64,000 bases of DNA from positions 8,828 to 72,827 of the forward strand of contig CAYJKR010000002.1 of NCBI GenBank assembly GCA_964371165.1. Direction: 5' to 3'. The stretch's first letter is position 1. Every line of letters begins with the position of its first letter. A program made the position numbers and the translations under genes. Below are positions 4,190 to 45,338 of the stretch, in pieces. A model generated the notes under the pieces. It ran no database searches, was not told the DNA's origin, and was given only the letters and a program-made list of their open reading frames with translations. This DNA comes from an uncultured Gammaproteobacteria bacterium (GTDB lineage Bacteria; Patescibacteriota; Microgenomatia; UBA1406; GWC2-37-13).

Positions 4190-7100
4190 TTAAGCTTTGC
4201 TGTTGACGGCCTCCAGGTCGACGGCGTTTTCCATGATTATACCGAGCCTGCCCTCCCGGTCGTTTACCCGGCCCTTGAGCATAATGACGCGATTTATCGC
4301 CAAGAAGTGTTTTATTTTGGCAAAAAGCTTGGGAAAGACAACGACTTCGATGCTCCCGGTTTCGTCAAAGACCTGAATAATGGCCATTTCCGAATTGTCT
4401 TTCCTGGTCTTTAAGGCCTTCTTGCCGCTGACAATCCCGGCGACGATAACCGATTTATCGGTATCTGAGGCCACAATGTCTCCGATTTTGTGGGTAGATT
4501 TTTTGGCAATTATCGGGGCATATTTCAAGAGCGGGTTTTTGCCTATTAAAAAGCCGATGACTTCGCGCTCCATGGCAAATAGTTCGTCCTCGGAAAATTC
4601 CGGGACCTTTGAAAACGAGTCGTTCAGGCTTTTGGGTGAGGAACTCTCAAAGAGGTCAAATTGGCCTTTTTCCTGCTTGATTTTTGCCTTTTGGATATCG
4701 GCAACCACATTAGGGTAATGGGTCAAGAGGGTGGCAATATTGCCAAACTGGGAAAAAGCCCTGGCCTTGATCAAGCTCTCGACGGTTTTTTTGTTGACGC
4801 GTCGAAGGTCGATTCTGGAGAGAAAATCCTTAAAGCTCCGGAAAGATCCCTCGGCGCGGGCGGTAATAATCGACTCGATGGCCGCGCCCCCGACATTCTT
4901 GATCGCCGACAGCCCAAACCTGATGGCGCCCCCCTCGATGGCGAAATTGTGGCTCGATTTGTTAATATCGGGCGGCAGGACGGTGATATTCATTCTCCGG
5001 CACTCCTCAATCGCCTGGGACATCTTTATCTCCCTCAAGGGCCCGGCGACCCCCTGGAGCTCTGCCGAAAGAAGCGCCGTCATAAATTCGACCGGATAAT
5101 TGGCTTTGATATAGGCGGTCCAGTAAGCAATCAGGGCGTAGGAGGCCGAGTGCGGTTTGTTGAACCCGTAGGCGGCAAACTTTGCCATAAAGTTCCAAAG
5201 GGCCTCGACCGTTGTCTTCTTGTAGCCCTTCTTTATGGCGCCGTTGAAGAATTTTTCTTTTTCCTTGTCCATTAGTTCTTTTTTCTTTTTACCCATCGCC
5301 ATCCTCAAGTTATCGGCCTCGCTCATCTTGTAACCGGCTAAAGCATGGGCGATCTCCATCACCTGTTCCTGGTAAACGAGGACTCCATAGGTTTCGGAGA
5401 GAATTGGCGTTAAGTCGGGGTGCAAATATTTAATCTTCTTGGCGTTTTGTTTGCCTTCAAGGAAAGCCGGGATAAGATCCATCGGACCGGGGCGGTAGAG
5501 TGCGACCATGGCGGAAATGTCGGAAATTTTATTGGGCTTCAAGTCCTTGGCTAATCTCTTCATCCCCCCCGACTCGAGCTGAAAGATGCCGACGGTGCTC
5601 CCGCTCGAGATCAAGTCATAAGCTTTTTTGTCGTCCAAGGGCACGGCGTGAATATCGATTTTTTTTCCGGTCAGCTCCTTAACATAACCGAGAGCCTTTT
5701 CGATAATGGTCAAGTTCCTCAAGCCCAAGAAGTCGACCTTGAGGAGGCCGATTGCCTTTTGATTTGAAACCGCGTTTAAATCCAGGCAGTACATATCGTA
5801 CTGGGTGATAATCTTTCCCTCCCGCGAGTCCCTTTGCAAAGGGACGTATTCCAACATCGGTTTATCGGATATGACTACCCCGGCGGCGTGGACCGAAGCG
5901 TGGCGCGGCAGCCCCTCGATTTTTCGGGCAACGTCGAGGATTTTTTTGACGTCGGGCTCGGTCTGATAGGCAAACTTCAGTTGGGGAGACTCCTCAAGGG
6001 CGGCGGCAATAGTCATGCCAAATCCTTGTCTCCCAAACGGAATCATCTTGGCAATTCGGTCGCCCTGGGAATACGAGTGTCCCAAAGCGCGGGAGACGTC
6101 GCGAACCGCCAATCTGGCTTCCATGGTTCCAAAAGTAATTATTTGGGCGACCTTATCTTCTCCGTATTTATGGGTCACATATTTCAAGACTTCGTCCCGG
6201 CGGGTATCGGCAAAGTCGATGTCGATATCGGGAGGGGTCGGGCGCTCGGGGTTCAAAAACCTCTCGAAAGGCAGGTTGTAGTCTATGGGGTTAATGTCGG
6301 TGATGCCGAGGATATACGCGACCAGGCTACCGGCGACCGATCCCCGGCCAGGGCCAACGGCAACGCCGTGCTCCTTGGCCCAGTTGACAAAATCGGCTAC
6401 GATAAGAAAATAGGTGGCATAACCTTTGGAAGTAATGATTTTGAGCTCGTACTCTATCCTTTTATTGACCATCTCCTGGTCATAGGCGGAAACCCTCTTT
6501 TTTCTAACCGTTACCAGATTTTTAAGGTAAGACTCGACCGAAACTCCCTCGGGCGTGGCAAATTCCGGGAGAATCCATTTGCCGAAGGGAATTTTAAGGT
6601 CGCACTTCTCGGCAATCTTTAGGGTGTTTTCGACGGCTTCGGGAAGGTCTATAAACAAGCCCTTCATCTCCTGTGGAGTTTTGAAGTAGTAGTCGGGGAC
6701 GTCCACCATCGAGAGGGGCCTGTCTTTTTCAATGATTGTCCGCTGCGTCTGGATGCAGAGCATGATTTCCTGGGCGTAGGCGTCGGCCTCGTCCAGATAG
6801 TGGACGTCGTTGGTTGCCACCAGTGGGACTCCAAATTTACGAGACATTCTGATCAATTCTTTGTTGACGCCGTCGAGCTTTTCGACCTTGGGATGGCGCT
6901 GGACTTCCAAATAATAGTCGTCTTTGAAAAGAGCCTGGTATTTTTGGACGACCGCCTCTGCCTCCTTCGTTTGATTTTCTAAAATCGCGCTTGCAAGCTC
7001 TCCATTCAAACACCCGGAGAGGGCGATAATGCCCTCGTGGTGTTTCTCGAGGACCTCGAAATCTATTCTTGGCTTGTAATAAAAGCCCTCGAGGTGGGCA

Positions 7101-7427: not shown

Positions 7428-9935
7428 TTATATACGATTTTTTGTCACGATTATGACCGGCGTTTGTTCATCCGCTTGTCCCATAGGGTTGTCTTTTATT
7501 ATCTTTTCAACGAGTTTGTCGGGGAGGCCGGTCGAGTTTCCCAGGACGTTTTGTCCCAGGTCGTTGGCGTCGACGATGGCGGCTCTTTCTATTTTATCGG
7601 CAACCTCATTTGGATCTTTGGGACCGAGTTTGGCCGAGACGTTTGACGGATAAAGCGAATAGCTGGTCGGGCCGTCGATCGAACGGATAGTTGACCCGGT
7701 AACCCGGTAAAACATTCCGCCGATGCCGAAAATTTTGGTTAACGCGGAAACAAATGTTGCCAGTAAAATTTTTGGTAATCCGACCTCGTCAATTGCCAGC
7801 TGCATCGTCCAAGGACTACCGAGTCCGATTCCGTAAGGCGTTCTTTTGACAAACGAGGAGAGTACTTTGGCTGCTAGAGTCGGCTTGATGTCCCAAATGA
7901 AATAACTACGCCCTTGGGATATGGCAACGATTTTTTCCGAAACGGCAAAGAATAAGGCGCGACCACGATACGGCTCGACTGCTTTTCTGATTTTGCTTAC
8001 ATAGTCGTCGCCTTTTTTAAATGCCTCGGTTTTTAATGGATACCTGAAGTAGGTCTTGCCCCCCACTTTTATTGCCAGCTTTTTTCCTCGGTTGGGTTGG
8101 CCGAACTGGTATGGTTTTTTATTTTGTTTAGCTATTACGTCAAAAAACTCCTTATGCCACAAATGGAGGTTTAAAATTCTCCAAAATACCATCGTATCGG
8201 TATTCTTTTTTTCCAAAAAATCCTGAAACGCCTCGACGATCTTGACCTGGTTAAAATACCGATTATGTCCGAATTCAAGAGAAGTAAATATTTTCATCAG
8301 GACTTCTTTTTTGTCCATGAACCATTCGTACTCGGGTGTCGTAAAGCCTATCTTGTTTCGCCTTTGGTTAATAACGGTAGGCAACAAATCTTTTGTCGCT
8401 TCTCTTAATATGTACTTACTCCAGCCGCCTTTTATAATGGCTTCATCGGGCATAGAAAAAATTCGCCTTATCAAATTGAAATCCAGAAAGGGGACTCTGC
8501 CCTCTATGGAAAACCTCATCGCGTTTTTGTCCTCATATCTTAGAAGAGACGGCAGGCTGTTGTAAAAGACGTCTTGGATTAATCTTTTCTTTAGGTTCTT
8601 GTTCTCAACAATAAAATTTTCCCTTTGGTGTTTTTCGTAAAAATCCCGATTCAATAGACCAGAGACATTAAGGGAGGCAGAAAGCTTCTCTTTTATATAT
8701 CTTATAACCACGTCCGGCGCCGACATTACCTCGCTCAGCAATCTGAAGTATTTTTTGTTTTCAAGGAGCTCTCGAAAATATACCAAATAGTAGGGTAGGT
8801 AACCGGCCATCATTTCGTCGCTCCCCTGCCCGTCCAAAAGTACTTTTACTTTGCCTTTGGCCATCTCCATCACTTTGTACTGGGCATACGGCCCGGTCGA
8901 AATCGTCGGCTCCTCCTGCGTCCTGACAAAGTCCTTAATCTCTTTGAAAAAGTCGGCCGAATTCGGTTTCACTTTGTAAGACGTTATGTTGGCGATTTTG
9001 GAGGTTATGGCGTCGATGTATTTTTCCTCGTCGTTTGAAGAGTTCGGAAAGACGGCCGAAAAAGTCTTTTGCCTCTTCCCTACCGACCTGGCTTCTTTGG
9101 CATGACGACTCAATAGTCGGTTGACGACGGCGACGACGGTTGAGGAATCGAGCCCCCCCGATAAACAAGTGCCGACCGGAACGTCGGAAATCAGACGGTA
9201 TTTAATTGCTTTTATAAGTTCGTCCTTAAATTTTTTAGCATCCGTTGATTGTTTTTCCAAAGATAACAAGTCGTCTTCGAGGTTGGAATATCTTCGAATT
9301 TCTATTTTTCCTTTACTGATTTCTAGAAGCTCTCCCGGCATCAGGCGATAGATATTTTTAAAGAAGGTTTCCTTCTCGTTATCGTGGACGCGGAATTTTA
9401 GATATCGGTAAATGATCCTGTTATTGGGGCTGGTTTTTATCAGTCCCGATAAATGAATCGGTTTGATTTCCGAGGAAAAAACCAATTTGTCGTTGAATAT
9501 GGAATAGTACAGAGGTTTTATTCCAAAATGGTCTCTAACCAAAAGCATTTTGTTTTTCCTTGTATCGCGAAGGGCAATGGCGAACATGCCGTTTAACCGG
9601 TCGAAACACTTTTCTCCCCACTCCTCATATCCGTGAACGATGACCTCGGTGTCGGACTCGGTTTTGAAAACGTGGCCTTTTTTGAGTAACTCGGCCTTTA
9701 ACTCCCGGTAGTTGTAGATTTCGCCGTTATAGACGACAACGACCGACTTGTCTTCGTTATAAATCGGCTGATCCCCTCCCTTAAGGTCTATTATTGCCAG
9801 CCGACGGTTAAGGAGCGAGACGTCTGAGTCCTGATAGAATCCTTCCCCGTCGGGGCCGCGGTGGGCCAACTGCCGGGAAAACTTGCGGAGCAGTTTGTCG
9901 TCTTTAAATCCGTAAAACCCGGCGATTCCGCACAT
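7428..9935 (-). CDS. asparagine synthase (glutamine-hydrolysing) fused to a C-terminal CofE-like (F420-0:gamma-glutamyl ligase family) domain
   Basis: N-terminal MCGIAGF (Ntn amidotransferase nucleophile Cys2) and PP-loop SGGLDSS. A roughly 220-aa C-terminal extension carries PLKTEAFKKGDD, VSEKIVAISQGR, IVDANDLG and NPMGQADEQTPVIIV, which resemble CofE motifs. Confidence 0.8.
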   Translation of the reverse strand: MCGIAGFYGFKDDKLLRKFSRQLAHRGPDGEGFYQDSDVSLLNRRLAIIDLKGGDQPIYNEDKSVVVVYNGEIYNYRELKAELLKKGHVFKTESDTEVIVHGYEEWGEKCFDRLNGMFAIALRDTRKNKMLLVRDHFGIKPLYYSIFNDKLVFSSEIKPIHLSGLIKTSPNNRIIYRYLKFRVHDNEKETFFKNIYRLMPGELLEISKGKIEIRRYSNLEDDLLSLEKQSTDAKKFKDELIKAIKYRLISDVPVGTCLSGGLDSSTVVAVVNRLLSRHAKEARSVGKRQKTFSAVFPNSSNDEEKYIDAITSKIANITSYKVKPNSADFFKEIKDFVRTQEEPTISTGPYAQYKVMEMAKGKVKVLLDGQGSDEMMAGYLPYYLVYFRELLENKKYFRLLSEVMSAPDVVIRYIKEKLSASLNVSGLLNRDFYEKHQRENFIVENKNLKKRLIQDVFYNSLPSLLRYEDKNAMRFSIEGRVPFLDFNLIRRIFSMPDEAIIKGGWSKYILREATKDLLPTVINQRRNKIGFTTPEYEWFMDKKEVLMKIFTSLEFGHNRYFNQVKIVEAFQDFLEKKNTDTMVFWRILNLHLWHKEFFDVIAKQNKKPYQFGQPNRGKKLAIKVGGKTYFRYPLKTEAFKKGDDYVSKIRKAVEPYRGRALFFAVSEKIVAISQGRSYFIWDIKPTLAAKVLSSFVKRTPYGIGLGSPWTMQLAIDEVGLPKILLATFVSALTKIFGIGGMFYRVTGSTIRSIDGPTSYSLYPSNVSAKLGPKDPNEVADKIERAAIVDANDLGQNVLGNSTGLPDKLVEKIIKDNPMGQADEQTPVIIVTKNRI

Positions 9936-40297: not shown

Positions 40298-41023
40298 TTA
40301 TAGTTTTATAACTGGTTTTTTAAATCTTAAATCTATCGACCTAAAATCCTGGCCCTTTATCTTGAGCTGCCTGATAATTTGGTTTACCTCGTATTTCTGC
40401 AGCTCAAAATCCTTGGCCGCGGTAAAAATAATCTTCTTTTCTCCTACGTTACATACTAACATATCGCGGTCGGCAATATCAAGAATATCGACCGGCAAAC
40501 CCAGCCGTGTTAGATTTTGCGAAAACGACAGGCCCAGTTTTATATCCATCAGGTCTAAATAGTCGCCGGACGAATAGGAATAGTAATTTAATTTTTGATA
40601 ATATTTTATCGACGTCAGATCTTCTTGTTTTATTTTTGTTTTGGCAAGAATCCGGCCGTCCTCCGATAAAACAAAAAAACCTAGACTCGCCTCAAGAACG
40701 GCCACCGGCTCGTAAAAATCCGGGTAAAGAATCAAGATCGAAGGAAACTTCTTTTCCACTTTCAAGGCCTTGAGATAAGGATTTTTGTTTTTTAATTCCC
40801 TGGCCAATGTTTCGTCGTTGATTAAAAGCAGGCTTTTGTTCTTGTAGTCGGTCAGCCCGATTATTTTCTGATTGCCTTTAATATTTTTTATCTCGAGGAG
40901 TTTTATCCTTGTCTTTAAATCCAAAAGAAAGATTGCTAAAAAAGACAGCAAAGAAATTACGAAAACGAAAAGGCTTTTCTTAATTTTATTCGAAGAGGGC
41001 GGCGATGATCTTTTTGTCTCCAT
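40298..41023 (-). CDS. ftsQ: FtsQ/DivIB-like cell division protein
   Basis: 241 aa with an N-terminal TM helix followed by a POTRA-like region. Position between murG and ftsA fits. Confidence 0.7.
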   Translation of the reverse strand: METKRSSPPSSNKIKKSLFVFVISLLSFLAIFLLDLKTRIKLLEIKNIKGNQKIIGLTDYKNKSLLLINDETLARELKNKNPYLKALKVEKKFPSILILYPDFYEPVAVLEASLGFFVLSEDGRILAKTKIKQEDLTSIKYYQKLNYYSYSSGDYLDLMDIKLGLSFSQNLTRLGLPVDILDIADRDMLVCNVGEKKIIFTAAKDFELQKYEVNQIIRQLKIKGQDFRSIDLRFKKPVIKL

Positions 41024-42086
41024 CTGTCGGATTTTGAATTGTCAACTGATTGAAGTTTTTTCTGTACAAATCGATGTTTTTAATCATTTCTTTAATTAGC
41101 CTAAATAATTTTTCGCTCGCCTCGACCTGGTGGAAAATTTCGCCGCACCCGGCCTTGGCAAATAACTCCGCGTGCTTCTGCTGTTCCCGGCCGCCCGACC
41201 AGGGCAGGGGGATAAATAGAGCCGGTTTCTTTAGGGCTATTAGTTCAAAAAAAGTATTGGCGCCGGCGCGACCGACAATCAGGTCGGACTTGGAATATAT
41301 GTAGCCGATCTCGTCCTCGAAAAAATGTTTGCTTAAAAAATACCGACTTTTGAGATAGTTGGGAAGAGATTGTTTTATTTTAGACAACTCTTCGTAGTCT
41401 CGGTATTCCTTGGTCTCCCCGACCTGGTGAATGACGATAAAGTCTTTGACCAATTTCTTAATAATTTTTTTGACGTGTTCGTTTATGCTGTGGCTGCCGA
41501 GGGACCCCCCGGTAACATAAATTACCGGGACACCCGACTCGATATTAAATGGCGTTTTCTTGACGGCAAAAATTGATTTCCTGACCGGGTTGCCCGTTAC
41601 GAAAGTTTTTTTTGGATTAAAATATTTTACCGAGTCTGTGAAGGCGACAAAAACCTTTTTGGCAAACCAGGAAACAATTCTGTTGGCGAGCCCGGGGTGG
41701 ACGGTCTGTTCGTGGGTAAAAACCGGGGTTCGGAAAAGATAAGCCCAAAAAGCCACCGGCACCGCCAAGTAGCTTCCAAATGACAAAACCACGTCGGGCC
41801 TTTGATCGCGGACGATAGAAAAAGCGTTAAAAAACCCAATCGGAACGCGAAGTAAATTCCTCAAGCTCTTCAGGGTCAAAACCCTCGTCAACCTGCCAGC
41901 CGTTAAAGCAATAAAGGGAATTTTTAATTTGGTGACCTCTTTGTACTCGAGGGATATGGTTTTTTCCGAATCTAGGGCATATTTTCTGCCGACAAAAACG
42001 ATTTCGACGTTTTTCTTTGTTTTTTTCAACTCTTCGATTACAGCTAGTGCTGGAGCCAAATGTCCACCCGTAACCAATATCTTCAT
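40986..42086 (-). CDS. murG: UDP-GlcNAc:lipid I GlcNAc transferase
   Basis: MKILVTGGHLAPALAV (G-loop), VTGGSLGS and the C-terminal GRAGANTFFELIALKKPALFIPLPW block. ATG 42086 is preferred over the track's TTG 42110. Confidence 0.92.
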   Translation of the reverse strand: MKILVTGGHLAPALAVIEELKKTKKNVEIVFVGRKYALDSEKTISLEYKEVTKLKIPFIALTAGRLTRVLTLKSLRNLLRVPIGFFNAFSIVRDQRPDVVLSFGSYLAVPVAFWAYLFRTPVFTHEQTVHPGLANRIVSWFAKKVFVAFTDSVKYFNPKKTFVTGNPVRKSIFAVKKTPFNIESGVPVIYVTGGSLGSHSINEHVKKIIKKLVKDFIVIHQVGETKEYRDYEELSKIKQSLPNYLKSRYFLSKHFFEDEIGYIYSKSDLIVGRAGANTFFELIALKKPALFIPLPWSGGREQQKHAELFAKAGCGEIFHQVEASEKLFRLIKEMIKNIDLYRKNFNQLTIQNPTDGDKKIIAALFE

Positions 42087-42103: not shown

Positions 42104-43225
42104 TCAGCAAACATTTTTGATGCTCAGGCCACAGTGGGGGCAGTTCGTTAACCAGGTGTTTTTGTCCTTGACGTTTTTTTCATAAGGAATCGGCTGGGTA
42201 CAGTGAGGACAAGAGTAAAAATCATGGCTCTTGTCGTCTTTGTCCTCTTCGAGGACCTTCGGCATTTTTTGTTTCAGAAGTCGGTCGAGCGAGGAGAAAT
42301 TATTGAGGAAATTGTCGACCGTGTTCATGAGGTCGTTAATCTTGAATTTTTCTTCCGACCCGCAACTCCCCGACAGCCTCAGCGATTCCAGGCCGTGGCT
42401 TTCCATGTAGTGGAGAATCAGGTGCTTGTAGGAGTTGAGGATAAATTGTTCGTCGACCTCATGCCCCTTAAAAAAAGCCTCAGTCAGTCGATTTTTTATG
42501 GACAGCCGAAGGCTCCCCGAAAATGACTGCCTCAACAATTCCATGGTCTCAAAAAGGCTAAACTCGTAGTCCTTATTGTTTTTGTATATTGTCCTATCTC
42601 CGGCTCGGCCGTTGACTTCGATAAACTGGTCGATATTCAACCTGGTCAAGTAAGGGTGGGAAATCAGGTGACCGATTTTTTCCTGCTCGGTCTGTTTTCC
42701 TGACGCCTCACTATATACGTCGCCCAAAATATCTTGTACCCAGGGCTCGCCATTTTTCGAAACGCTTATCGCCGCATTCCTTATTTTCCCCCCATCGTAG
42801 TACATGACGTAGAGCTGGCCGTCGCGGTATTTGCCGACTTGGGTATACGGATTATCGGGGTCGCCGTCAAAACTGGTTATGCCCGGCGGGCTATACAAGA
42901 GCGAAACCAGCCCCGGGTTTTCGACCGACGAAGTCAGGGCCCTGATCAATCCTTCCTTGTATAGCCCTCCCCTTTCCCTTTCGTCCAAAAAAACCTTTTG
43001 TCCGGTGTCGTGGATCAAAATCTCGTTGTCTTTGCTCAATCCATATGAGTATGGAAGTGAAACAACGTTGTCTTCTAAAACGTGGTTGACGTAAGAGTCG
43101 AGGTTTTGCTCGAGGGTACGGATTTTATCCTTGCCTGATAGCCTGTTGAGCAACCTCGCTTCGGCTCGCGGATTGACTGAATATTTTTTTAGACTAAGGC
43201 CTTCGAGTGAATTAGCGCCCAACAT
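42104..43225 (-). CDS. uncharacterised 373-aa soluble protein with a C-terminal CPHC-x19-CPHC zinc ribbon, directly downstream of a cobalamin riboswitch
   Basis: Long ORF with no competing frame. AGGGA lies 5 nt upstream of the ATG. No TM helix and no motif I can assign. Inserted between ftsW and murG. Confidence 0.75.
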   Translation of the reverse strand: MLGANSLEGLSLKKYSVNPRAEARLLNRLSGKDKIRTLEQNLDSYVNHVLEDNVVSLPYSYGLSKDNEILIHDTGQKVFLDERERGGLYKEGLIRALTSSVENPGLVSLLYSPPGITSFDGDPDNPYTQVGKYRDGQLYVMYYDGGKIRNAAISVSKNGEPWVQDILGDVYSEASGKQTEQEKIGHLISHPYLTRLNIDQFIEVNGRAGDRTIYKNNKDYEFSLFETMELLRQSFSGSLRLSIKNRLTEAFFKGHEVDEQFILNSYKHLILHYMESHGLESLRLSGSCGSEEKFKINDLMNTVDNFLNNFSSLDRLLKQKMPKVLEEDKDDKSHDFYSCPHCTQPIPYEKNVKDKNTWLTNCPHCGLSIKNVC

Positions 43226-43228
43226 GGT

Positions 43229-43385
43229 TGTCCCTGCTCGGGTTCAGTGGTCTTGTCGGTCTTCGGACTTTTCCGATTGCCTCGGAATCACCGCTGCGGC
43301 ACAGCCACGGATTTACACCGTGTTCCCATATCTCACCCATTGGGTGAGTTGTCTTCCCCCGCACTAAGCGCGCGAGGTGACAATA
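43229..43385 (-). promoter_or_regulatory. cobalamin (B12) riboswitch
   Basis: The minus-strand RNA contains the core GGGAACACGGUGUAAAUCCGUGGCUGUGCCGCAGCGGUGA (plus 43286-43327). It also has the hairpin UUCCGA-GGCAA-UCGGAA (43271-43287), the B12 box AGUCCGAAGACCGAC (43255-43269) and a 5' hairpin CUCACCC-AAU-GGGUGAG (43332-43348). These closely parallel the E. coli btuB leader. Confidence 0.85.
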
Positions 43386-43417
43386 ACAAGACTCAAATTG
43401 TAAACAAAATTAATATA

Positions 43418-44509
43418 CTACACCTTGACTCTCTTTTCAATATTGAGAAGGATTCCAATTAGCGAAAAGGATATCAACAAATTGCTTCCTCCGTATGACA
43501 AGAATGGCAAAGGCACTCCGGTTAAAGGAAACAGCCCCGTCATCCCGGCCAGATTAATTATCAACTGGAGGTTAAAAAAGGCAAATATACCGGCGGCAAG
43601 AAGACGCGACAATTTATCCGGCGCCACCCTTATCAGGTGGTAGACTTTATAGACAAAAATGAAGTAAAGGGTGAGGAGAATTCCGGCGCCGATAAAGCCG
43701 TATTCTTCGCCGATTATCGCAAAGATCGAGTCGGTATGGGCCTCGGGTAAAAACAAATATTTTTGCCGGGAGGCACCAAAGCCCGCTCCCAATATTCCTC
43801 CGTTTGATAGCGAAATCGCTATTTGATTTATGTGATAGCCTATTCCCAATGGGTCGCTCGCCGGATTGAGATAGGCCATCAACCGATCAAAGCGATAAGG
43901 ACTCGCTTTTACCAACAAGTAAAAAAGCCCCGCTGCAAAAGGCGCCAATAAAAATAACGACGTCATATTCATGCCGGCCAAATAGTAGATTATTAAGGAC
44001 AATAAAAGAACGGTTATCGCCGTCCCCATGTCGGGTTGCAAGATTATGAGAAAAGTCAAAAATCCGACTAGAAAAATAAAAGAGGTAAACAGTCTTTTTT
44101 CATGATTTTTGAACCAGGACGCCAGGTAAATGATTACCGAAAACTTAGCCAGCTCGGTCGGCTGGACGTTGATGATTCCGAAATCGAGCCAGCGCCTGGC
44201 TCCCCCTGCCGCCCGTCCGATGCCGGGGATTAATACCGCCATGAGAAGCAGAATGGTAAAAGCCATCGACAGGATAGAAAAAAAGTAAAGCCTTTTGTAA
44301 TCAAAGAGGGAAAAAAATACCAAAACCCCGAGCCCCAAAGCCAGCCAAATCGCCTGGAGGCGAAAATAGTGGAGGCTTTCGCCAAATTCAGAAACCGCCC
44401 TAACCGAGGAGGCTTCGAAAATAAAAACCAAGCCGATCAAAGACAAAATTATCGGTATCGTTAAAATCGGAAGAAAAAATTTGTTTTTAATGAGAATGTT
44501 TTTAAACAT
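43418..44509 (-). CDS. ftsW: SEDS-family lipid II polymerase FtsW
   Basis: 363 aa, polytopic. Contains QPTELAKF, QPDMGTA, PEAHTDSIFA and GLFPLTGVPLPFLSYGGS. Lies in the dcw context. Confidence 0.92.
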   Translation of the reverse strand: MFKNILIKNKFFLPILTIPIILSLIGLVFIFEASSVRAVSEFGESLHYFRLQAIWLALGLGVLVFFSLFDYKRLYFFSILSMAFTILLLMAVLIPGIGRAAGGARRWLDFGIINVQPTELAKFSVIIYLASWFKNHEKRLFTSFIFLVGFLTFLIILQPDMGTAITVLLLSLIIYYLAGMNMTSLFLLAPFAAGLFYLLVKASPYRFDRLMAYLNPASDPLGIGYHINQIAISLSNGGILGAGFGASRQKYLFLPEAHTDSIFAIIGEEYGFIGAGILLTLYFIFVYKVYHLIRVAPDKLSRLLAAGIFAFFNLQLIINLAGMTGLFPLTGVPLPFLSYGGSNLLISFSLIGILLNIEKRVKV

Positions 44510-45338
44510 TGTCTATTTGGGCTAACTCCACTTTAATATTGGAAGAGTGCGGCTTTAAAAATAACTTCATAAGGCGATGGTAATTTGGGTTTAAGTCGGT
44601 GACAAAATAGGAGACTTTTCTCTTTTTTTCTAGTTTTTTTTCCAATTCCTTGTGATGCGATAGATATTCTTTCAATTTCTCGGCGGCCGGCTTGCCTTCG
44701 GTGACGACCTTTACTTTTTTACCGACTATCTTTTGTATCGGGTTTTTTAAAAGTTCATAGTGGGTGCAACCCAAGATTAAAGTGTCAATCTTCCTTTCGA
44801 TTAACCCCGCTAAATACTCTTTTAGAATAAACCCGAGTGCCAGATGGTTTTTGGTAATCCCCTCTTCAATAAAAGGAACGAGGAGAGGGCAGGCCTCTTG
44901 AAAAACTAAAGCCTTGGGCAAGGTTTTTTTTATCTCTCTGATAAAGGCTCCCGAGTCCACGGTCGTTTTGGTGCCGATAACCCCGACGCGGTTGATTGGT
45001 GAAGATGTATGGCTTTGCCCTATGTGCTCGATTGTCGGCTTGATGATACCCAAGACTTTTCTATCGCCATGGTGCTTTGGTAGATATTCACGCTGAATTT
45101 TTTTTAGAGCCGCGGCGGTTGAAGTATTGCAGGCGATAATAACCAGCTGGCAGTTTTTTTTGAACAAAAACTCGATCGCTTCTTTGGTAAAACGGTAGAT
45201 TATTTCCTCCGACCTGTTTCCGTAAGGGACTCTGGCGTTGTCGCCTAAATATACGTAATTGTATTCCGGTAGGTGTTCCAGAAAGGCTCTAAATATCGTG
45301 AGCCCGCCGAGGCCGGAGTCAAAAACGCCGATTTTCAT
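44502..45338 (-). CDS. murI: glutamate racemase
   Basis: 278 aa with IGVFDSGLGGLT, catalytic Cys blocks IIACNTSTA and LGCTHY. Confidence 0.93.
   Translation of the reverse strand: MKIGVFDSGLGGLTIFRAFLEHLPEYNYVYLGDNARVPYGNRSEEIIYRFTKEAIEFLFKKNCQLVIIACNTSTAAALKKIQREYLPKHHGDRKVLGIIKPTIEHIGQSHTSSPINRVGVIGTKTTVDSGAFIREIKKTLPKALVFQEACPLLVPFIEEGITKNHLALGFILKEYLAGLIERKIDTLILGCTHYELLKNPIQKIVGKKVKVVTEGKPAAEKLKEYLSHHKELEKKLEKKRKVSYFVTDLNPNYHRLMKLFLKPHSSNIKVELAQIDNV

Follow-up and report, generated by a model that had tools for sequence, protein, structure and literature searches.

In the 64,000-nt stretch of contig CAYJKR010000002.1 analyzed here (GenBank assembly GCA_964371165.1; the whole stretch is referred to as the window), a cobalamin riboswitch precedes an open reading frame (ORF) for a 373-aa protein, here called X, and the two are located together between ftsW and murG of the division and cell wall (dcw) gene cluster. 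A cobalamin aptamer is found just upstream of X in every assessable locus of its protein family, and in most other loci with flanks read the gene belongs to a block encoding B12-dependent ribonucleotide reduction. As judged from these comparisons, X would be an undescribed part of the B12 economy of bacteria of the Candidate Phyla Radiation (CPR), not a cell-division factor. What is new is the cargo protein family, which is undescribed, while the riboswitch class is known and occurs here with a compact architecture.

That the riboswitch is genuine is virtually certain. A cmscan of the whole window against 4227 Rfam families gave RF00174 as the sole riboswitch match, with 48.4 bits (gathering score 31.5, E 4.8e-9) over model positions 1-189. 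The match lies on the minus strand in the 192-nt spacer separating the ftsW stop (43418) from the X ATG (43225). This spacer contains the core AUAUGGGAACACGGUGUAAAUCCGUGGCUGUGCCGCAGCGGUGA as well as the junction GCCGCAGCGGU and the B12-box stretch AGUCCGAAGACC, the latter two being conserved across all tabulated leaders of the family. The B12 box AGUCCGAAGACCGAC aligns with the AGCCAGGAGACCuGCC stretch of the RF00174 consensus, and its AG[U/C]CCGA(A)GACC is kept in all leaders. The original prediction, which had been made by reading the letters of the window, described the ORF limits, the 192-nt gap, the core, a hairpin and the B12 box; all of them are present on the minus strand as stated. 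Its call of a cobalamin riboswitch, for which it had named the RF00174 gathering threshold as the test, is upheld by the score given above, and the Rfam alignment renders its comparison with the E. coli btuB leader dispensable.

Comparison of leaders supports the same structure. Among 22 leaders, compensatory changes occur in four of the five pairs of P4, and pairing extends to 96.7% of cells in the tested structure as a whole, as against 27-49% in slid controls. None of 500 shuffles reached its covariation score. The loop of the P5 hairpin, UGCCG, is invariant in every tabulated leader but one (L050, UGCGG). Class I (adenosylcobalamin-selective) cobalamin riboswitches are characterized by an extended peripheral P6 domain (P7-P11). 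No such domain is found in the window aptamer, whose peripheral P6 extension is minimal and consists of a single 6-bp hairpin; among the leaders this hairpin varies in length, and there is none in L004, L015 and L040. For seven family leaders, RF01689 (AdoCbl-II) is the best-scoring model.

Strong evidence for a B12-related function of X is the persistence of this arrangement across the family. A word-indexed search of 5.8 billion proteins gave 11 clusters related to X, one of which bears an organism name (Candidatus Roizmanbacteria); when 1.84 billion representatives were searched exhaustively with a hidden Markov model, the family grew to about 126 clusters (50% identity). Full-length members mostly comprise 340-430 aa, and all organism-named members are CPR. 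Motif-guided scans for the subset with YSPPGP[AV][SAV]F added 14 genome and 43 metagenome loci, which are accordingly biased towards members bearing this motif. RF00174 was detected above threshold directly upstream of X in all of the first ten loci, including that of the 28%-identical P0011. Among the 14 genome-scan loci, 11 have an Rfam cobalamin-clan aptamer ahead of X, as do 18 in a set of 20 that comprised 18 metagenome loci and the two most divergent members; in the five Rfam misses, the L5 hairpin, the B12 box and the expression platform are still visible by eye. For the overall tally, an nhmmer profile from the Rfam-confirmed aptamers and a core regular expression were applied to 70 loci, six of which are cut by contig ends. 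In all 64 assessable loci the aptamer was found on the same strand just upstream of X, a linkage that persists down to about 20% protein identity and across three genomic contexts. Since a protein motif and not the RNA led to the loci, the association involves no circularity. With a cobalamin aptamer so constantly ahead of it, the gene almost certainly belongs to B12 physiology, and the question raised at the outset, whether homologues of X also follow a B12 riboswitch, can be answered in the affirmative. Full-text literature searches yielded no paper on cobalamin riboswitches in Patescibacteria or the Candidate Phyla Radiation.

Some observations on the individual loci may be added. The contig of L012 begins (positions 1-70) with a tandem duplication of CGGCGAGGCAAGAATTCAGTGACTGTGCCGCAAC inside the aptamer, which is absent from L031, the same locus; it has the appearance of an artefact of assembly at the end of the contig and explains why Rfam missed the L012 aptamer. 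A Roizmanbacteria scaffold (L013) carries a thiamine pyrophosphate riboswitch (RF00059, 64 bits; 9219-9328, plus strand) about 2 kb downstream of X, so these reduced genomes keep several cofactor-sensing RNAs. Five contigs of metagenome-assembled genomes labelled "uncultured Gammaproteobacteria bacterium" (L011, L014, L015, L017 and L023) carry typical CPR-type loci: L011, L015 and L017 contain the nrdR-nrdJ-pduO-X block, and the neighbours in L023 match those of the Roizmanbacteria loci L001 and L002. These contigs probably carry the label as a placeholder or by mistake.

Downstream of the B12 box, the linkers differ in length and sequence, and a conserved motif adjoins the start codon in every leader. 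In the window this motif is a P13/L13-like hairpin, the 3' strand of which, AGGG(A), is the Shine-Dalgarno (SD) sequence 6 nt before the X AUG. Among 36 distinct leaders, 29 display CC(C)-CG[N]GC-A(G/A)G(G) and reach the AUG after another 4-14 nt; in the other seven (type B), the motif ACA-CG[N]GC-(C/U)AUGU abuts the AUG, which itself lies inside the stem. The middle base of CG[N]GC is the only variable one (A in 30 leaders, U in three, C in two). Its CG and GC flanks are complementary to the L5 loop UGCCG, and the variable base fits the unpaired nucleotide of a kissing loop. In L050, the C-to-G change in L5 (UGCGG) is matched by a G-to-C change in the opposite loop (CCUGUC), and in the P13 stem a compensatory exchange (C-G to U-A, in L008) and a wobble exchange occur once each.

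This organization is best understood by reference to the translational L5-L13 type of cobalamin riboswitch. In env8HyCbl, cobalamin contacts the L5-L13 kissing loop, L13 must sit in a stem-loop bearing the ribosome-binding site, and L5-L13 kissing loops always hold at least one unpaired nucleotide (PMC5028336). The window RNA resembles this type (RF00174, clan CL00101) in matching the full model above its gathering score and in sharing the GGGAA...GGUG.AAAUCC P4/L4 element, the GCCGCAGCGGU junction and the B12 box. Moreover, a short single-stranded linker likewise leads to a small SD-carrying hairpin beside the start codon, and the proposed loop interaction would likewise include an unpaired nucleotide. 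In contrast to the RF00174 type, the P6 extension of the window RNA is one short hairpin, absent in some relatives, and the RNA stands between the RF00174 and RF01689 models; L5 UGCCG and L13 CGAGC are near-frozen across the protein family, and the cargo is not a known B12 gene. Because of the literature on L5-L13 switches (PMC5028336) and the conserved platform, we infer a kissing-loop mechanism with an OFF direction. Upon binding of cobalamin, the L5 loop UGCCG would kiss the CG(A)GC loop of the small hairpin and thereby occlude the SD sequence AGGG in its 3' strand, so that ribosomes could not load; X would then be translated solely at low intracellular B12. Such a B12-induced translational OFF switch through L5-L13 is likely. 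Transcription of the riboswitch-X unit would be driven by the TTGAAA-17-TATATT promoter, which overlaps the 3' end and stop codon of ftsW and lies about 11 nt upstream of the aptamer. In the alignment, L004, L007 and L008 show TTGACA, TTGACT or TTGACG boxes followed by 17 nt and TATATT at the same distance from the aptamer.

Table 1 Features of the riboswitch-X region and its flanks in the window
Feature	Position	Strand	Basis or remark
ftsW, upstream flank	43418..44509	(-)	PF01098, E 1.3e-90
Putative sigma-70-like promoter TTGAAA-17-TATATT of the riboswitch-X unit	43412..43440	(-)	10/12 consensus matches, best site of the region
Cobalamin riboswitch aptamer (RF00174)	43237..43400	(-)	Rfam cmscan, full-length model match
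P5/L5 hairpin CUGUGCCGCAG	43294..43304	(-)	loop UGCCG (43297-43301) is the proposed kissing partner
Short P6-extension hairpin UUCCGA-GGCAA-UCGGAA, 6 bp	43271..43287	(-)	read directly
B12 box AGUCCGAAGACCGAC	43255..43269	(-)	read directly
Expression platform, P13/L13-like hairpin CCC-GAGCA-GGG	43232..43242	(-)	CGAGC loop (43236-43240) conserved
ORF X, 373 aa	42104..43225	(-)	translation; ends CPHC-x19-CPHC
Four-cysteine zinc-ribbon or rubredoxin-like knuckle pair (C339, C342, C362, C365)	42131..42211	(-)	C-terminal
murG, downstream flank	40986..42086	(-)	PF03033, PF04101; translation begins MKILVTGGH

The usual neighbourhood of X gives the riboswitch linkage a metabolic context. The neighbours of all loci were clustered, and the clusters were assigned with Pfam, NCBIfam and the PDB. 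The gene order in 10 of the 14 genome-scan loci is nrdR, nrdJ, pduO, optionally genes for DUF4430 and DUF6580, the riboswitch, X, a small ORF designated C4 and an opposite-strand thioredoxin gene; the same block order is found in P0012 and in P0121 and P0114, which diverge most among the members looked up. The nrdJ of the block belongs to TIGR02504 (NrdJ_Z; 578 bits versus a cut-off of 400) and hence encodes an adenosylcobalamin (AdoCbl)-dependent ribonucleotide reductase (RNR), and pduO corresponds to PF01923. In six genome-scan loci (L016-L020 and L024; e.g. L020 4941-5896), the DUF4430 and DUF6580 genes are present between pduO and the riboswitch. The former encodes a protein of about 130 aa with an N-terminal hydrophobic segment, the latter a membrane protein of about 186 aa that matches PDB entry 6FNP chain A (E 1.5e-4). 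This entry is ECF-CbrT, a vitamin B12 transporter of the energy-coupling factor (ECF) type from Lactobacillus delbrueckii (PMC5997447), and DUF4430 constitutes the C-terminal domain of transcobalamin-family B12 binders (PMC4350170). The two proteins could thus be annotated as a CbrS/CbrT-like cobalamin uptake pair. A literature search on DUF6580 found nothing, and one on Patescibacteria with cobalamin and ribonucleotide reductase found no relevant paper.

The closest described gene cluster is nrdJ-cbrS-cbrT-pduO of L. delbrueckii (PMC5997447). As in this cluster, the CPR loci contain co-directional genes for NrdJ, PduO, a CbrT-like DUF6580 protein and a small DUF4430 protein. Unlike it, they add nrdR upstream and, downstream, a separately promoted, riboswitch-controlled X together with C4, neither of which appears in the published description of the Lactobacillus cluster; in the window, X is no longer part of such a cluster. 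As far as gene content and order can tell, X would be an extra element, seen in CPR only so far, on a module of B12 import, adenosylation and ribonucleotide reduction. Both the invariable riboswitch linkage and the presence of nrdJ, pduO, DUF4430 and CbrT-like genes around X in most other members with flanks read lend strong support to the suggestion of the original prediction that X might represent a new B12-related function. C4 is an ORF of 130-150 aa that follows X in the nrdJ-type loci L011, L015-L021 and L024 (e.g. L020 7200-7634) and also occurs in L068 (7378-7770) and L069 (7261-7695). Conserved in it are the motifs NYTPIDELV, IKLPPDLKKIG and IKLPISDEKIMEDL, and a RWFATILLYILERAHLTLKK helix stands at its C-terminus. 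Pfam and NCBIfam assign it to no family, and the window encodes no homologue of it. Judged by gene order, C4 appears to be co-transcribed with X and may be its partner. In L069, a glutamine-amidotransferase (GATase_6/7) gene is found between pduO and the riboswitch (4220-5770). The window itself encodes an 835-aa asparagine-synthase-like protein (7428-9935, minus strand) far from X.

X itself belongs to no described family. No transmembrane-like segment was found (the maximum 19-residue Kyte-Doolittle mean is 0.88) and no signal peptide either; X is thus taken to be a soluble cytoplasmic protein and, from its conservation, probably an enzyme. Searches of Pfam (a copy with the newest models from 2025), NCBIfam, PHROGs and PADLOC gave no family match, and Pfam searches of 82 X relatives returned weak zinc-ribbon matches alone. 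In the PDB, the X sequence found no match; two profiles matched the C-terminal zinc ribbon (weakly, E 0.02-0.6, to eL43/L37ae, Elf1 and similar zinc ribbons) and nothing in the core (residues 1-320). An AlphaFold (AF2) model based on the 82-sequence alignment reached a mean predicted local distance difference test score (pLDDT) of 89.7, with 277 residues at 90 or above, and a predicted template modelling (TM) score of 0.80. Foldseek of this model against the PDB gave a best E of 0.12 at a TM score of at most 0.16, and no neighbour was found in BFVD; an earlier model from 12 sequences likewise had no Foldseek neighbour in the PDB. For both models and including BFVD, nothing was found at E <=0.001, and the TM score was at most 0.18. 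If the model is correct, the core of X has a novel fold relative to solved (PDB) and viral (BFVD) structures.

In a 24-sequence alignment, the residues S56, Y61, E84, R85, Y111, S112, G115, G136 and Q137 as well as G286, C288, R315 and C339 are invariant, lying in the motifs ERGG, YSPPG, GQLY and GSCGG. The C-terminus carries two CxxC knuckles about 20 residues apart, the arrangement of zinc ribbons and rubredoxin-like modules, and their cysteines are 96-100% conserved among the 82 members. The knuckle pair is joined to the core by a low-confidence linker (residues ~303-334, with pLDDT below 50 at 322-334). This pattern has the appearance of an enzyme active site combined with a tethered metal module. 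CxxxCxxC (radical S-adenosylmethionine, SAM), P-loop and PP-loop motifs occur in none of the 82 members. X matches no known family of cobalamin riboswitch cargo (B12 transport, cob/cbi synthesis, metE, B12-independent nrd), nor does it match the ten-stranded alpha/beta barrel of RNR and glycyl-radical enzymes (PF02867-like) in Pfam, PDB sequence or Foldseek searches. The earlier statements that X lacks a transmembrane helix and any assignable family agree with the hydropathy, Pfam, NCBIfam and PDB sequence results, and family, fold and profile searches place X in no characterized B12-related family either. By its sequences, the X family is uncharacterized and has so far been found only in CPR bacteria.

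A functional tie of X to B12 or to NrdJ is very likely. A function in the cytoplasm that is needed at low B12 and dispensable when the vitamin is plentiful appears most likely, and a specific role in cobalamin handling can be put forward tentatively, at somewhat less than an even chance. The biochemical role we infer for X would be to act on intracellular cobalamin when its supply is limiting, by capture, reduction or beta-ligand removal ahead of adenosylation by PduO, and thereby to keep NrdJ supplied. This proposal is supported by the immediate neighbours of X, namely pduO and the genes for DUF4430 and the CbrT-like protein. Most cobalamin riboswitch cargo serves B12 acquisition. Cytoplasmic cobalamin processing by soluble proteins such as CblC/MMACHC-type decyanases and dealkylases or PduS- and CobR-type reductases takes place between import and PduO adenosylation. 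The resemblance of X to these proteins would concern the position in the pathway only, and unlike them X displays no Pfam or NCBIfam match and no flavin, Fe-S or B12-binding motif.

Several observations speak against this assignment or against parts of the wider explanation in which it is embedded. The DxHxxG motif for base-off/His-on binding is present in none of the 82 X members, and no histidine column of their alignment reaches 50% conservation. For a processing step required at every use of B12, repression by the vitamin would not be an obvious arrangement, a logic which fits a B12-independent bypass of NrdJ at least as well, and it would be odd to repress such a step while pduO is unrepressed: in the Rfam-scanned loci, cobalamin-clan matches were found only upstream of X, none of them before pduO, the CbrT-like gene or the DUF4430/DUF6580 pair. 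Furthermore, nrdJ, pduO and cbrT are absent from the 64-kb window, so the link between X and NrdJ in this genome is by homology only. The P6 extension is minimal and several leaders favour RF01689, so the ligand form may be AdoCbl or else hydroxocobalamin or methylcobalamin. Finally, the kissing-loop pairs are near-invariant, and their covariation comes from one leader (L050) and from the variation of the bulged base.

The alternative that survives best is a B12-independent bypass of NrdJ by X, alone or together with C4, which would provide deoxyribonucleotides via salvage or recycling or as a new kind of RNR. In this reading, NrdJ catalyses the sole B12-dependent step of these organisms, and the riboswitch would silence X once B12 renders NrdJ functional, as happens to other B12-independent isozymes under cobalamin riboswitches. 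The regulatory logic fits, as X alone within the nrdJ block has a riboswitch directly upstream, and X stands beside nrdJ, nrdR and thioredoxin in its commonest context. B12-repressed, B12-independent RNRs are known from Streptomyces (nrdABS) and Bacillus halodurans (class Ia), as cited in PMC12528414. The putative B12 repression of X, mostly next to nrdJ, resembles these enzymes and metE, another riboswitch-repressed isozyme, whereas X has no sequence or fold relation to RNR or MetE. The enzyme-like invariant residues, among which are a Cys, several Tyr and an E-R pair, and the metal knuckle on its flexible linker at the C-terminus would also suit a catalyst of this kind. On the other hand, neither Pfam nor PDB sequence comparison nor Foldseek revealed any similarity to the RNR or glycyl-radical barrel, and the 82 members are devoid of radical-SAM, P-loop and other nucleotide or cofactor motifs. 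X comprises only about 370 aa, and its immediate neighbours are genes of B12 handling, not of nucleotide metabolism. Overall, the bypass is considered rather unlikely. In its extreme form, X (possibly with C4) would be a B12-independent enzyme of a new type that stands in for NrdJ once cobalamin runs out, up to a new RNR class of CPR bacteria. This form is improbable; it would account for the fact that no other gene of the nrdJ block is immediately preceded by a B12 OFF switch.

A different objection accepts the aptamer as real and concerns its mode of action: it might affect transcription or mRNA stability, or act as an ON switch. Cobalamin riboswitches can indeed alter mRNA abundance besides ribosome loading (PMC5028336). 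In the window, however, no terminator-like hairpin with a U-tract was found between the aptamer and ORF X on the minus strand, so that a transcription terminator mechanism was rejected, and the conserved element overlaps the SD sequence or the AUG in all 36 distinct leaders. No cobalamin riboswitch with this architecture is known to act as an ON switch. This objection is hence hardly probable, and translational control of the ORF, already favoured in the original prediction for lack of a terminator, gains from the P13/L13-like hairpin that holds the SD sequence or the AUG throughout these leaders.

The position between ftsW and murG was the starting point for a further proposal, namely that riboswitch-X couples B12 to cell-wall synthesis or division, with X as a dcw component or with the switch modulating murG-ftsQAZ. 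The window order is mraY-murD-racemase-ftsW-X-murG-ftsQ-ftsA-ftsZ, X is also found between ftsW and murG in the lineages of L004, L005, L008/L009 and L010, and the murG ATG (42086) follows the X stop codon by 17 nt with no terminator in between. Against this, the arrangement occurs only in a single subclade, within which X shares at least 45% identity with the window protein. Elsewhere, X with its riboswitch stands beside PGI in L001, L002 and L023 (between PGI and a hydrolase gene in L001 and L002/L003), and most other loci with flanks read, including the two most divergent members, have X in the nrdJ block. In two close relatives (L070 and L071), the gene order is mraY-murD-racemase-ftsW-murG-ftsQ-ftsA-ftsZ with ftsW and murG adjacent (129 nt and 7 nt apart), and no trace of an aptamer was found between the two genes. 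This settles the earlier question whether relatives show this adjacency without the insert. In one of these genomes, GCA_016215445.1, the same contig bears the riboswitch and X at a distance of about 400 kb. Conserved presence at this position in relatives, by which a dcw member would be recognized, is therefore not observed for X.

Since ftsW and murG are adjacent in these two relatives, one of which has X elsewhere, the dcw position is a lineage-specific insertion, and it looks like the place where a mobile promoter-riboswitch-gene cassette happened to land. By this comparison, the unit between ftsW and murG would be a self-contained promoter-riboswitch-X cassette. Just upstream of its ATG, murG has a TATAAT or SD element in every dcw-type locus: in the window, TATAAT lies at 42098-42093, 6 nt before the ATG; it likewise precedes murG in L004, L008 and the X-less L071, and GAGG is found there in L005 and L010. 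Insertion of the cassette thus left the start signals of murG intact, and a dependence of murG translation on X was rejected. The switch, moreover, looks translational and specific to the start site of X. The link between cofactor supply and envelope growth considered in the original prediction has thus not stood up to the two relatives with adjacent ftsW and murG, to the distant X in one of them and to the start signals of murG; it is largely refuted by the comparative data and very improbable.

Additional features of the cluster were noted. The -10 box TATATT of the X promoter (43412-43420, minus strand) stands right after the ftsW stop, and the TATAAT of murG has the same position in L071 (3985-4003); insertion of the cassette may have taken place immediately behind the original promoter of the ftsW-murG junction or have duplicated it. 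No recognizable SD sequence precedes ftsZ, ftsA, ftsQ, ftsW, murD or mraY in the window, and X has AGGGA. This suggests leaderless or SD-independent initiation in much of the dcw cluster of the window, against which the SD-based riboswitch platform stands out. An Asp/Glu racemase gene, probably murI (44502-45338, minus strand), is located between murD and ftsW and overlaps both by a few bases. The murD-racemase-ftsW arrangement recurs in L070 and L071, while in L004, L005, L008 and L010 murD is directly followed by ftsW.

Taken as a whole, the explanation which combines an inserted cassette, a translational OFF switch and a role of X in cobalamin handling for NrdJ is given an even chance. Whatever weight is not taken up by cobalamin handling, the NrdJ bypass and the envelope link falls to possibilities that have yet to be conceived.

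Few guides to what a gene does are as dependable as riboswitches. Here, one of them points to a protein with no family, no recognizable fold and no cofactor motif, and thus to a gap in the knowledge of how B12 is handled or done without. Either handling or bypass, if true, would be new biochemistry. For the annotation of CPR genomes, the result suggests that DUF6580 is a CbrT-like B12 S-component and DUF4430 its partner, and the leaders of X supply natural riboswitch variants that are compact and differ hardly at all in their proposed kissing loop. In the loci read, the B12-dependent enzyme at hand is NrdJ, the maker of DNA precursors. The role of X would hence show how ultra-small, cofactor-scavenging CPR symbionts keep replicating when the vitamin is scarce.

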